A stretch of DNA of 64,000 bases from Syntrophomonadaceae bacterium (GTDB lineage Bacteria > Bacillota > Syntrophomonadia > Syntrophomonadales > Syntrophomonadaceae). Positions 52,384 through 53,950 of this stretch are shown piece after piece. Within the stretch, counting starts at the first letter, position 1; each line of letters starts with the position of its first letter. The position numbers were made by a program, and so were the translations under genes. The stretch lies in NCBI GenBank assembly GCA_049656905.1, contig JBASMO010000044.1:482-64481 (forward strand), written 5' to 3'. The notes beneath the pieces were generated by a model, which saw nothing but the letters and a program-made list of their open reading frames with translations, searched no databases and was not told where the DNA came from.

Positions 52384-52387
<4 letters not shown>

Positions 52388-52412
52388 GCCGGCAATTGTT
52401 ATCTTTTATAAT
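52384..52412 (+). promoter_or_regulatory. Sigma-A type promoter driving the riboswitch-aminomutase unit
   Basis: TTGAGC (52384-52389), a 17-nt spacer, then a perfect TATAAT (52407-52412). Confidence 0.55.
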
Positions 52413-52435
52413 TAAATAAGAAACTCAAAAGTATC

Positions 52436-52556
52436 TTAGAGCGCTGAGTCTGCAATAGGCAGAGCGGAGGACCCGATTTTTGGGGTTAATCAGGTATGTA
52501 GCCTGAGGGGCTACCCAGCAGCCCCCACCCGTCAGCTAACTTCGTAAGCGTCGTTT
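52436..52556 (+). promoter_or_regulatory. ydaO-yuaA type (c-di-AMP) riboswitch
   Basis: It matches the remembered B. subtilis ydaO aptamer blocks in the same order. CAGAGCGGAGGACCC corresponds to CAGAGCGGGGGACCC. GGGGUUAAUC corresponds to GGGGUGAAUC. CCACCCGUCAGCUAACUUCGUAAGCGU corresponds to GAACCCGUCAGCUAACCUCGUAAGCGU. Confidence 0.85.
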
Positions 52557-52631
52557 GGGGGGTACTGTAACAATATATAGCTTACAGGTTAGTTGCCCTC
52601 CGCAAAATTTAAGAAGAAGGAGGGTTTTTGC

Positions 52632-53882
52632 ATGTCTCAGGAAGAAGTTGTAAACCGCAATCTATCATTGCAAAGAGCTGAAGAACTACGGGAAAGTATT
52701 AGCGATTATCTCAGCGTTGAACCTTTCATTGAAACCGGGTTTAGAGTGCAGGATAGAATCCTTGAAAATAGGCAAAAGATACTAGAATACTTCGATGCTA
52801 CCCAAGAGAACTGGGATGATTGGGTTTGGCAGATGAAGCATCGCATTACCGACGTAGAGCCATTACAGTTTTTGCTGAATCTGCCTGAAAAGGAAGTTGA
52901 GGAACTAAAGCAGATTAGCAAGCGATTCCGCTGGGGTATTTCACCTTATTATCTTAGTCTGATTGATTTCGAAAACTATCACGATTCTCCGATTTATAAA
53001 CAAGCCGTGCCTAGCATTTTAGAAGTATGGGATAACCATGGGTCTGCTGATCCCATGTGTGAAACCCAAACAAGTCCTGCCAGTCGGATCACCCGGCGTT
53101 ATCCGGATCGTTTAATTATTAATGTTACCAATCAATGTGCCATGTACTGCCGGCACTGCCAAAGACGACGTAATTTTGGAGAAGAAGATCACCACTGTAC
53201 TCGTCAGCAAATGGAGGAAGCACTAACCTATGTGCGTAACAACCCCGAGATAAGAGATGTGTTGATCACCGGGGGCGACGCACTCATGCTGAGCAATCGA
53301 ACCCTGGATTGGCTCCTGGGTGAATTAGATCAGATTCCTCATGTGGAGATTAAACGGTTGGGGTCCCGCACTCCCGTTACGCTGCCCCAGCGCATTACCC
53401 CGGAGCTCTGTGCTGTTTTGGAAAAGCATCCTCCTATATATCTAAATACCCAGTTTAACACACCCTTGGAAGTTACTCTGGAGGCTAAACAGGCTTGCGA
53501 TCGTTTAATAAAGGCTGGAGTTGTACTGGGGAACCAAGCGGTTTTACTAAGGGATATCAATGATGATGTTCACATTATGAAAAAACTTAACCAAGAACTG
53601 TTGAAAATACGAGTAAGACCATACTATATATTTCATGCTAAACAGGTTAAGGGAACTTCCCATTTTATTACCCCCATTGAAACGGGCATGGGTATTATGG
53701 AAAAACTAAGAGGCTTTACCTCTGGTTTAGCAGTACCAACCTATATTATCAATGCCCCAGAAGGACGAGGTAAAACGCCCATTTTGCCAGAGTATTTACT
53801 ATCCTTGAGTGAAGATGAAATAACTATCCGGACATGGGAAAATAGAGTATATAGATATAAGAACCGGATAAATCAAAGATAA
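52632..53882 (+). CDS. KamA-family radical SAM aminomutase, with a glutamate 2,3-aminomutase-like active-site signature
   Basis: CAMYCRHC (CxxxCxxC) cluster and PLP-Lys region. It aligns end to end with the remembered Clostridium subterminale KamA. The two lysine-binding Asp positions, however, read Lys (YYIFHAKQ versus YYIYQCDL) and Asn (YIINAPEG versus FVVDAPGG). The start is taken at ATG 52632 after GGAGGG. Confidence 0.85.
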   Translation: MSQEEVVNRNLSLQRAEELRESISDYLSVEPFIETGFRVQDRILENRQKILEYFDATQENWDDWVWQMKHRITDVEPLQFLLNLPEKEVEELKQISKRFRWGISPYYLSLIDFENYHDSPIYKQAVPSILEVWDNHGSADPMCETQTSPASRITRRYPDRLIINVTNQCAMYCRHCQRRRNFGEEDHHCTRQQMEEALTYVRNNPEIRDVLITGGDALMLSNRTLDWLLGELDQIPHVEIKRLGSRTPVTLPQRITPELCAVLEKHPPIYLNTQFNTPLEVTLEAKQACDRLIKAGVVLGNQAVLLRDINDDVHIMKKLNQELLKIRVRPYYIFHAKQVKGTSHFITPIETGMGIMEKLRGFTSGLAVPTYIINAPEGRGKTPILPEYLLSLSEDEITIRTWENRVYRYKNRINQR

Positions 53883-53914: not shown

Positions 53915-53950
53915 CCCCCTGCTTATCAGCCGATTGAGCAGGGGGTTTTT
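53915..53950 (+). terminator. Intrinsic terminator after the aminomutase
   Basis: CCCCCTGCT (53915-53923) pairs with AGCAGGGGG (53937-53945), followed by TTTTT. Confidence 0.8.

Follow-up and report, generated by a model that had tools for sequence, protein, structure and literature searches.

A c-di-AMP riboswitch in front of a predicted glutamate 2,3-aminomutase gene in a Syntrophomonadaceae bacterium and its putative anti-SD/SD relay

The eam locus described here is a complete monocistronic unit that consists of a promoter, a c-di-AMP riboswitch, the eam gene, and a terminator. It is located in a 64,000-nt stretch of the genome, referred to below as the window. The best overall explanation of this arrangement, with a probability of roughly three in four, is that the riboswitch serves as an OFF switch on eam, that it works through a relay between an anti-Shine-Dalgarno (anti-SD) strand and the Shine-Dalgarno sequence (SD), and that the product, beta-glutamate, is a compatible solute. 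Both the riboswitch class and its pairing with this gene have been published before and are not new.

Organization of the eam locus

The coordinates of all features are listed in Table 1. The promoter hexamers, the G6 run, the CCCUCC motif, and the SD all lie where the preliminary description of this DNA had placed them. The promoter is found ~12 nt upstream of the aptamer, with its −35 hexamer overlapping the stop codon of mgtC and a predicted transcription start at ~52419-52421. A consensus scan for promoters is not significant alone (7 sites found versus 6.6 expected). In the window and its three closest orthologous leaders (L004, L005, and L006), TTGAG and TATAAT are invariant, whereas the spacer and the flanks vary. 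The same scan finds no further promoter-like sites between 52412 and the ATG start codon (52632-52634). The terminator of eam was missed by the scanner because its loop is longer than 8 nt. No conserved operon partner of eam is found among the orthologue loci, which share just the synteny of guaB, mgtC, and dprA.

Table 1. Features of the eam locus, with positions counted in the window
Feature	Position	Strand	Evidence
Sigma-70-type promoter TTGAGC-17-TATAAT	52384..52412	+	10/12 consensus match; hexamers kept in relatives
Promoter −35 TTGAGC; −10 TATAAT	52384-52389; 52407-52412	+	read from sequence
c-di-AMP riboswitch aptamer (ydaO/yuaA, RF00379)	52432..52565	+	85.8 bits, full-length match
Aptamer helix P1	52442-45/52547-50	+	cmscan alignment
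Aptamer helix	52449-51/52461-63	+	cmscan alignment
Aptamer helix	52464-69/52540-45	+	cmscan alignment
Aptamer helix	52474-75/52481-82	+	cmscan alignment
Aptamer helix	52483-85/52528-30	+	cmscan alignment
Aptamer helix	52491-94/52502-05	+	cmscan alignment
Aptamer helix	52508-11/52521-24	+	cmscan alignment
Loop of 3'-most aptamer hairpin UACCCAGCA, 5' partner of pseudoknot	52512..52520	+	loop/tail covariation, 53 leaders
Aptamer 3' tail with G6 run (52557-52562)	52551..52565	+	covariation, folding, PMC11963983
Spacer hairpin CUGUAAC...UUACAG, enclosed by anti-sequestor helix	52565..52589	+	folding
Anti-SD UGCCCUCCG, core CCCUCC 52596-52601	52594..52602	+	MFE, pairing probabilities, conservation
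SD GGAGGG, 7 nt upstream of ATG	52619..52624	+	sequence
U5 run, possible weak intrinsic-terminator tail	52625..52629	+	sequence; directly 3' of CCCUCC/GGAGGG hairpin
eam, glutamate 2,3-aminomutase (predicted), 416 aa, radical SAM/PLP	52632..53882	+	TIGR04368, residue alignment, Pfam
Intrinsic terminator of eam: 9-bp stem CCCCCUGCU/AGCAGGGGG, 13-nt loop, U5	53915..53950	+	read directly from sequence

Aptamer and pseudoknot

The leader had been described as carrying a ydaO-type aptamer, and the covariance-model scan recommended at that time bears this out. The cmscan search against Rfam 15 shows a match to RF00379 that scores well past the gathering score of 38 (E value, 1.4e-18), spans model positions 1 to 134 of 134, and is not truncated. 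It is the sole gathering-level Rfam match in the whole window and is recovered again in a genome-wide scan. Its score is the lowest of all eam leaders, and several conserved consensus positions differ in the window aptamer and its three closest relatives. The aptamer sits in the 5' leader, followed by an expression platform that could be remodelled by the aptamer state, as indicated by mutually exclusive computed folds. The host should be able to make the ligand, as it encodes two DAC (PF02457) proteins, with scores of 148 and 95 bits. The aptamer is predicted to bind two molecules of c-di-AMP with high affinity; picomolar values are reported for the class.

Covariation places the G-rich 3' tail in the predicted aptamer pseudoknot, opposite the loop of the 3'-most aptamer hairpin. 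In a column-wise count over 53 leaders, 76.5% of the loop/tail cells are paired versus 63.5% in shuffles, and none of the 500 shuffles reaches the observed value; the covariation score of the same leaders is 0.40 versus 0.11 to 0.33 for slid registers. This count was used in place of a cruder test that looked for the best duplex anywhere; with the Syntrophomonadaceae set left out, the latter gave a mean of 6.76 for a leader's own loop and tail and 6.48 for mismatched ones (83 of 2,000 permutations). In the window, 5 bp can form in either of two registers, CCCAG (52514-18) with UUGGG (52555-59) or UACCC (52512-16) with GGGUA (52560-64). In a previously studied member of the class, c-di-AMP binding drives pseudoknot formation and the pseudoknot controls translation (PMC11963983).

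Expression platform

The folding model assigns two roles to the tail: with ligand it would be the 3' partner of the pseudoknot, and without ligand it would act as the anti-sequestor strand. The anti-SD can pair either with 52556-52564 (the ON state) or with 52619-52625 (the OFF state), in keeping with the earlier proposal that CCCUCC has the G run and the SD as alternative partners, and the folding that this proposal called for does yield mutually exclusive structures. The two duplexes are nearly equal in energy, −14.7 kcal/mol for tail and anti-SD and −14.2 kcal/mol for anti-SD and SD; the sequestor hairpin (52595-52625) amounts to −11.6 kcal/mol. In co-transcriptional folding, the anti-sequestor is the MFE fold at all lengths that end from 52601 through 52634. 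In folds ending at the start codon, the anti-SD pairs with a free tail with a probability of 0.98, leaving the SD unpaired at 0.77, whereas blocking the tail raises its probability of pairing with the SD to 1.00 and lowers the unpaired value of the SD to 0.00. Among the 13 Syntrophomonadaceae leaders, the same switching is seen in 10 in the apo form and in all 13 in the bound form; L005, L012, and L015 stay closed in the equilibrium apo fold.

The combination of tail, anti-SD, and SD is present in every one of these 13 eam leaders. The anti-SD hexamer, expected by chance at ~0.006 per spacer, occurs at variable spacing in 13/13 of them versus 1/33 of the other leaders. Each of the three relay elements is a purine or pyrimidine hexamer that hardly varies, being constrained by its complementarity to 16S; support for the relay therefore comes from conservation and not from compensatory changes. 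Modelled in this way, the switch most likely blocks eam translation by hiding the ribosome-binding site. The OFF-switch logic proposed at the outset has thus withstood scrutiny of the aptamer identity, covariation, folding, and conservation of the trio, and the direction of regulation in vivo would be that of an OFF switch.

The proposed sequence of events is as follows. At high c-di-AMP, i.e., when there is no hyperosmotic stress, two ligand molecules would lock the aptamer together with the pseudoknot between 52512-52520 and 52555-52564. This would leave CCCUCC with the SD as its sole partner, and the resulting −11.6 kcal/mol hairpin would shut the ribosome-binding site, so that eam would remain untranslated; the hairpin and the U5 run might add some termination. 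Upon osmotic upshift, a drop in c-di-AMP would free the tail, which is transcribed ahead of the SD and could capture CCCUCC, with 52556-64 and 52594-602 forming a 9-bp anti-sequestor helix. The SD would then be open, eam would be made, and beta-glutamate would be produced from the cellular glutamate pool as a compatible solute.

The apo prediction depends on where the folded segment ends at its 3' side. When 12 nt of the open reading frame are included in the equilibrium fold of the platform, the window SD is closed (unpaired at 0.03); co-transcriptional folding traces this to pairing of the G run into the coding region. In the MFE fold of the full leader, the aptamer is missing, 52531-47 pairs with 52580-95 in a 16-bp alternative helix, and the SD stays sequestered; this helix is specific to the window and, with a z score of −3.0, is stronger than those in 296 of 300 shuffles. 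That fold was kept out of the mechanism because the aptamer is not recovered in it. Together with the low aptamer score, these folds are what one would expect if a genuine aptamer were followed by a degenerate or constitutively closed platform, with eam either weakly expressed or under control at another site: the ON state would be blocked by the 16-bp helix and by the A-to-G change that turns GGGAGGG of the tail into GGGGGG. This is very improbable, as the G6 tail still gives the 9-bp helix with the anti-SD, which remains the MFE fold throughout co-transcriptional folding as far as the ATG, and a GGGGGG tail is also found in L010. Pairing into the open reading frame would be disrupted by ribosomes, and the promoter, aptamer, anti-SD, SD, and an intact eam are all shared with the nearest relatives.

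The preliminary description had read the control as translational and noted the absence of a U tract. The fold that occludes the SD agrees with the former, whereas the latter is contradicted by the U5 run directly 3' of the sequestor hairpin, so that some termination may accompany the translational control. A switch that acts mainly by transcription termination would use the SD as the 3' arm of the terminator, and c-di-AMP would end transcripts at ~52629. The 7-bp hairpin with U5 right behind it could be taken in this way, and a U run occupies the same place in the three closest relatives (U8 in L004, U7 in L005, and U5 in L006), with an extra mini-helix formed in the loop of L005. Moreover, transcription termination is the mode of action of the validated switches from B. 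subtilis and Dehalobacter (PMC9337991), and a terminator-like hairpin with a U run is seen in 31 of the 51 classified eam leaders, several of these calls being weak (30 leaders with L011, which carries the anti-SD trio and was reassigned for that reason). However, a 17-nt loop on a short stem is atypical of an intrinsic terminator, the hairpin was not called in the consensus scan, and U-rich spacers between SD and AUG are common in AT-rich genomes. L007, L008, and L017, with the same trio, have 55 to 60 nt between the arms and no U run; the feature common to all 13 leaders is therefore SD occlusion. Termination as the main mode of control is accordingly unlikely.

Glutamate 2,3-aminomutase

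The preliminary description correctly recognized a KamA-family aminomutase, and the gene can be narrowed down further: by its sequence, it is specifically a glutamate 2,3-aminomutase (eam) gene. The product scores 693 bits against TIGR04368 (cutoff, 650), whereas the sister equivalogs fall under their cutoffs (AblA, 470 versus 525; arginine aminomutase, 373 versus 600; EpmB, 223 versus 369). It contains the Radical_SAM and LAM_C Pfam domains, and its CAMYCRHC (the CxxxCxxC cluster) and GRGKTP (the PLP-binding lysine) align with the LAM motifs. At the substrate side-chain site, alignment to 2A5H (YYIYQCD with YYIFHAK and FVVDAPGG with YIINAPEG) shows Lys in place of LAM Asp293 and Asn in place of LAM Asp330. 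Both residues are present in 64 of the 67 orthologue ORFs that could be parsed by pattern; the other 3 show the Lys, with the Asn site unparsed. Identity to Bacillota orthologues is 59 to 84% among the top 80 loci retrieved. With the enzyme identified as glutamate 2,3-aminomutase, it is predicted to convert l-glutamate to beta-glutamate.

The Clostridioides difficile glutamate 2,3-aminomutase, on which Ruzicka and Frey reportedly worked in 2007, is alike in belonging to the TIGR04368 equivalog, in its CxxxCxxC cluster and PLP lysine, and in carrying Lys and Asn where two Asp residues otherwise bind the epsilon-amino group of lysine. In contrast to it, the window protein is a glutamate 2,3-aminomutase by prediction from its sequence.

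Role of beta-glutamate

Methanogens are known to use beta-glutamate as an osmolyte. RF00379 occurs twice more in the genome, both times in front of genes of OpuA-type betaine ABC transporters, so the regulon is osmoprotective, and this context suggests that beta-glutamate serves as an osmolyte in Syntrophomonadaceae. The link to a beta-amino-acid solute made in the preliminary description thus still stands, with eam as the enzyme subfamily. Regulation could also be as described here with eam feeding a catabolic or biosynthetic route, in which case the control by c-di-AMP would stem from the known connection of this messenger with the balance of glutamate and potassium. That eam has no conserved partner gene to reveal its pathway and that the riboswitch is absent at 24 of the 76 testable orthologue loci would fit such a role, which nevertheless appears improbable: the other c-di-AMP-controlled genes of the genome encode betaine-type uptake systems, an Na+ riboswitch stands in tandem in one orthologue and two published cases, and the absence of downstream genes for modification or degradation of the product is in keeping with its simple accumulation as an end product.

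Control of beta-glutamate synthesis by this switch would be an example of c-di-AMP governing the synthesis of compatible solutes, beyond their uptake alone. It points to beta-glutamate as a compatible solute of syntrophic fatty-acid oxidizers, whose salt tolerance limits anaerobic digesters. What is known of the riboswitch class and its regulon is unchanged by the window example.

Riboswitch-eam pairs and related systems

The aptamer is found upstream of eam in 52 of the 76 testable orthologue loci, and no aptamers overlooked by Rfam were found in the 24 negative ones. This genome comparison, recommended in the preliminary description, confirms an aminomutase gene under a c-di-AMP leader; the notion that the association is unusual does not hold, since it is common and published. 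Lineages other than Syntrophomonadaceae have classical terminators, or the pseudoknot tail itself is the SD, as in the Desulforamulus-type eam leaders L048, L058, L061, L064, and L065.

The Bacillus subtilis ydaO (kimA) c-di-AMP riboswitch, reportedly treated by Nelson et al. in 2013 and Block et al. in 2010, shares with the window the Rfam family, the OFF logic, and an osmotic-homeostasis regulon. It differs in controlling a K+ transporter through a classical terminator, whereas in the window a biosynthetic enzyme would be controlled through SD occlusion.

White et al. (2022, Nat Chem Biol; PMC9337991, Supplementary Table 2) list c-di-AMP riboswitches upstream of eam. Fig. 4 and Supplementary Table 2 of that paper give tandem Na+-I/c-di-AMP riboswitches, which precede eam in Pelotomaculum thermopropionicum and Desulfotomaculum acetoxidans and ablA in Dehalobacter sp. 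CF; the Dehalobacter leader shows OFF behavior in vitro (PMC9337991). These systems are similar to the window in the aptamer class, for eam also in the enzyme family, and in the proposed logic, with c-di-AMP turning off the synthesis of a beta-amino-acid osmolyte. Among the eam orthologues, L066 has such a tandem. Unlike these systems, the window has no Na+ aptamer, because the upstream intergenic space is only ~45 nt; an Na+ riboswitch there is excluded, with no Rfam match. Furthermore, the published tested example is an intrinsic terminator, whereas the window has an anti-SD/SD relay and at most a weak terminator.

The riboCdA switch of Thermoanaerobacter pseudethanolicus/T. tengcongensis (PMC11963983) is likewise a translational OFF switch with a ligand-driven pseudoknot of loop and 3' tail. 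However, its pseudoknot tail is the SD, which is sequestered directly, whereas the SD-like tail of the window would be a decoy, with the real SD ~60 nt downstream and the two being rivals for the intervening anti-SD.

A broader, tentative reading, held at slightly less than even odds, is that at least three platforms have become combined with the pair of c-di-AMP riboswitch and eam in different lineages of Bacillota, namely terminators, the tail as SD, and a previously undescribed decoy relay of Syntrophomonadaceae, in which an SD-like tail titrates the anti-SD from the real SD. On this reading, syntrophic and sulfate-reducing anaerobes would rely mainly on c-di-AMP-controlled beta-glutamate synthesis for their de novo osmolyte response. 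The 51 leaders compared show how the platform varies in nature on a single aptamer-gene pair, and this series of designs may be of use in riboswitch engineering.

Leader, Aptamer, and Promoter of eam

The only Rfam 15 match above gathering thresholds in the entire 64-kb window is a c-di-AMP riboswitch aptamer (RF00379) directly upstream of eam, the gene for a predicted glutamate 2,3-aminomutase. It covers model positions 1 to 134 of 134 with a score of 85.8 bits (gathering score, 38; E value, 1.4e-18), so that the ydaO-type aptamer proposed in the preliminary description is borne out by the covariance model. The positions given there for the promoter hexamers, the G6 run, CCCUCC (anti-SD), and the Shine-Dalgarno sequence GGAGGG (SD) all match the sequence, but the claimed absence of a U-tract does not hold, as a U5 run follows the CCCUCC/GGAGGG (sequestor) hairpin. 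A consensus scan returned 7 promoter-like sites in a 2.8-kb stretch versus 6.6 expected, which is not significant alone. TTGAGC/TATAAT is the sole promoter-like site from the upstream gene to the ATG, and neither hexamer varies among the three closest orthologous leaders (L004 to L006), whereas the spacer and flanks do.

Features of the eam leader and transcript and the other c-di-AMP aptamers of the genome
Feature	Position	Strand	Remarks
-35 TTGAGC	52384-52389	+	Read from sequence; 17-nt spacer to -10
-10 TATAAT	52407-52412	+	Read from sequence
c-di-AMP riboswitch aptamer RF00379 (ydaO/yuaA leader)	52432-52565	+	Rfam 15 scan
G6 run	52557-52562	+	Read from sequence
CCCUCC (anti-SD)	52596-52601	+	Read from sequence
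GGAGGG (SD)	52619-52624	+	Read from sequence
U5 run	52625-52629	+	Directly 3' of CCCUCC/GGAGGG hairpin
eam start codon ATG	52632	+	Read from sequence
eam ORF	52632-53882	+	416 aa; Radical_SAM and LAM_C domains
Intrinsic terminator of eam	53915-53950	+	9-bp GC-rich stem, 13-nt loop, U5
RF00379 aptamer L001	G000:C59:4403-4535		Precedes OpuA-type glycine-betaine ABC transporter gene (ABC ATPase with CBS domains)
RF00379 aptamer L003	G000:C42:2055-2197		Precedes OpuA-type glycine-betaine ABC transporter genes (OpuAC binding protein and ATPase)

The Regulated Gene and the Riboswitch Regulon

The eam product scores 693 bits against the NCBIfam equivalog TIGR04368 (glutamate 2,3-aminomutase; cutoff, 650) and falls under the cutoffs of the sister families AblA (470/525), arginine 2,3-aminomutase (373/600), and EpmB (223/369). 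Its alignment with the structure of Clostridium subterminale lysine 2,3-aminomutase (2A5H; E value, 1.4e-117) shows a retained CxxxCxxC cluster and PLP lysine, with Lys and Asn at the positions of Asp293 and Asp330 of the lysine enzyme. This pair was reportedly described by Ruzicka and Frey in 2007 as the signature of glutamate 2,3-aminomutase. Both residues are present in 64 of the 67 parseable orthologue ORFs; the other 3 have the Lys, with the Asn site unparsed. The earlier assignment to the KamA family therefore stands and can be refined, on the profile and these residues, to a probable glutamate 2,3-aminomutase.

The terminator of eam was missed by the consensus scanner, which takes loops of 3 to 8 nt only. 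The next gene encodes an ArsR/CadC-type regulator and comes with a promoter-like site of its own, so that eam appears to be monocistronic. Upstream of it lie guaB and an mgtC-family gene. The assembly (2.42 Mb in 268 contigs) contains three RF00379 aptamers, two of them before OpuA-type genes; thus, the predicted riboswitch regulon consists of two osmoprotectant importers and eam. The genome encodes two proteins with diadenylate cyclase domains.

Distribution of the Aptamer among eam Orthologues

Whether orthologous genes carry the same leader, a question raised in the preliminary description, was addressed by fetching the best 80 eam orthologue loci from species-representative genomes and scanning them against Rfam. 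The closest orthologues (83 to 84% identity) are from Syntrophomonas MAGs. After exclusion of four loci with too little upstream DNA to judge, RF00379 was found directly upstream of eam, on the same strand, in 52 of 76 testable loci, with 87 to 110 bits for full-length matches and one of the 52 matches cut by a contig end. In the remaining 24 loci, no aptamer was found: the CAGCUAAC block is absent and the leaders are short (e.g., L024, L029, L037, L051, and L074). Judging from these leaders, eam is often, but not always, under c-di-AMP control, with about one-third of the orthologues lacking the aptamer. Some aptamer-less orthologues appear to be co-transcribed with the upstream gene. The eam-linked aptamers of L023, L036, L059, L062, L066, and L077 span 207 to 238 nt (87 to 100 bits), with variable-hairpin insertions of roughly 70 to 100 nt. 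No consistently co-located partner gene of eam was seen among the orthologue loci, consistent with an end product that is left to accumulate.

The Aptamer Tail and Its Pseudoknot

Covariance models cannot represent pseudoknots, so pairing between the loop of the last hairpin and the tail (the aptamer 3' end, just 3' of P1) was tested separately in 53 leaders aligned over this region. Across seven counted pairs, standard pairs occupy 76.5% of the loop/tail cells versus 63.5% in column shuffles (0/500 reach the observed value), and changes are seen on both sides at all seven. The covariation score is 0.40, compared with 0.11 to 0.33 for registers shifted by 1 to 3 columns on the 3' side. Examples include UGCCUUUA:UAAAGGCA (L039), CUCUUUC:GAAAGAG (L025), and CCCUUAA:UUAAGGG (L008). 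The window could use either the family register (CCCAG, 52514 to 52518, with UUGGG, 52555 to 52559) or an alternative one (UACCC, 52512 to 52516, with GGGUA, 52560 to 52564), both of which involve the G-run. The pairing inferred across these leaders agrees with the pseudoknot of the Thermoanaerobacter pseudethanolicus riboswitch, where a 2025 single-molecule study reported that c-di-AMP binding drives pairing of nt 83 to 88 with nt 125 to 130 and that this pseudoknot controls translation, repressing it about six-fold in vivo (PMC11963983).

Expression Platforms

Three designs account for all but 3 of the 51 eam leaders that have a full aptamer. In the first, seen in Moorella, Desulfotomaculia, and others, the aptamer is followed by a GC-rich hairpin with a U-run; of the 31 terminators scored by the scan, a few are weak calls and one, L011, fits the anti-SD group instead. 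In five Desulforamulus/Desulfotomaculum loci (L048, L058, L061, L064, and L065), the pseudoknot tail AAAGGGAGG doubles as the SD and the start codon lies 6 to 8 nt past the aptamer, the same direct sequestration as in T. pseudethanolicus. The 13 Syntrophomonadaceae-type leaders, of which the window's is one, all have a GGG(A)GGG tail, a CCCUCC-like hexamer 8 to 39 nt after it, and the SD GGAGGG another 15 to 58 nt downstream. The anti-SD hexamer is found in 13/13 of these spacers versus 1/33 other spacers (about 0.006 expected per spacer from base composition).

Predicted occlusion of the SD is common to all Syntrophomonadaceae-type leaders, in line with the translational control proposed earlier. 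The window has U5 after its sequestor hairpin (-11.6 kcal/mol, 17-nt loop), and its three closest relatives have U5 to U8 there, with no U-run in L007, L008, and L017; some termination may thus add to SD occlusion in the window's sub-clade.

Computed Folding of the Switch

The competing duplexes of the window are nearly isoenergetic (-14.7 kcal/mol for tail:anti-SD versus -14.2 kcal/mol for anti-SD:SD). When nascent RNA was folded from the tail and extended stepwise, a 9-bp helix (52556 to 52564 with 52594 to 52602), enclosing a small hairpin, formed once the 3' end reached 52601. This anti-sequestor helix, which leaves the SD unpaired, stayed the minimum-energy fold through the SD, U-run, and ATG (-15 to -20 kcal/mol). 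In partition-function folding of the segment ending at the ATG, the anti-SD pairs with the free tail (P = 0.98; SD unpaired, 0.77). When pairing of the tail is prohibited, as a stand-in for the ligand-locked pseudoknot, the anti-SD pairs with the SD (P = 1.00; SD unpaired, 0.00). The choice of CCCUCC between G6 and the SD, suggested in the preliminary description, is thus reproduced as two mutually exclusive computed folds. The anti-SD prefers the tail in 10/13 leaders with the tail free (P of at least 0.81) and the SD in 13/13 with the tail blocked (P of at least 0.73).

The predicted apo-state SD of the window is not robust to the segment limit: with 12 nt of coding sequence added, the G-run finds partners in the ORF and the SD closes (unpaired, 0.03). 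Translating ribosomes would oppose such pairing. The unconstrained whole-leader fold does not recover the aptamer and gives instead a 16-bp helix between its 3' strand (52531 to 52547) and the spacer immediately 5' of the anti-SD (52580 to 52595; -18.8 to -20.6 kcal/mol). This helix is stronger than in 296/300 shuffles (4/300 do as well), is not conserved in the relatives' leaders, and does not fit a simple ON/OFF relay. Sequence support for the putative relay, in which tail, anti-SD, and SD compete for pairing, is conservation at variable spacing rather than compensatory change, because the three elements are nearly invariant.

In the proposed mechanism, high c-di-AMP would lock the pseudoknot and leave CCCUCC free to close the SD, possibly with weak termination at U5, turning eam off. 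Low c-di-AMP, which signals hyperosmotic stress in the established view of this messenger's action, would leave the tail free to capture CCCUCC co-transcriptionally, so that the SD would stay open and eam would be translated, its product making beta-glutamate from glutamate.

Relation to Known Systems

This riboswitch class became known in 2004 to 2013, and that its regulon comprises K+ and osmolyte transporters as well as cell-wall enzymes is textbook knowledge (PMC7266159). Control of an aminomutase osmolyte gene by a c-di-AMP riboswitch is already published: White et al. (2022) described a tandem Na+/c-di-AMP leader of Dehalobacter sp. CF ablA, whose c-di-AMP riboswitch terminates transcription with ligand in vitro, and listed tandem Na+/c-di-AMP riboswitches before eam in Desulfotomaculum acetoxidans and Pelotomaculum thermopropionicum (PMC9337991, Supplementary Table 2). 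The same arrangement is found in an Ammonifex MAG (L066, 1504 to 1873), with Na+ (RF03071, 47.9 bits) and c-di-AMP (97 bits) riboswitches in tandem upstream of eam. In the accessible literature, we did not find the stand-alone c-di-AMP riboswitch-eam arrangement, its prevalence (52/76 loci), or a relay like that of the Syntrophomonadaceae, with the anti-SD contested between the true SD and a pseudoknot tail that resembles it. The relay's anti-sequestor/sequestor layout is standard, however, and many riboswitch classes use it. The initial observation is thus confirmed and its interpretation supported with refinements; the eam leader of the window is a clean, well-conserved example that would not surprise a specialist.

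The gene behind the experimentally tested tandem leader, Dehalobacter sp. CF "ablA" (PMC9337991, Fig. 4), owes its designation as lysine 2,3-aminomutase to annotation. Since eam genes frequently receive a lysine aminomutase label in generic annotation, the subfamily of its product merits a check.
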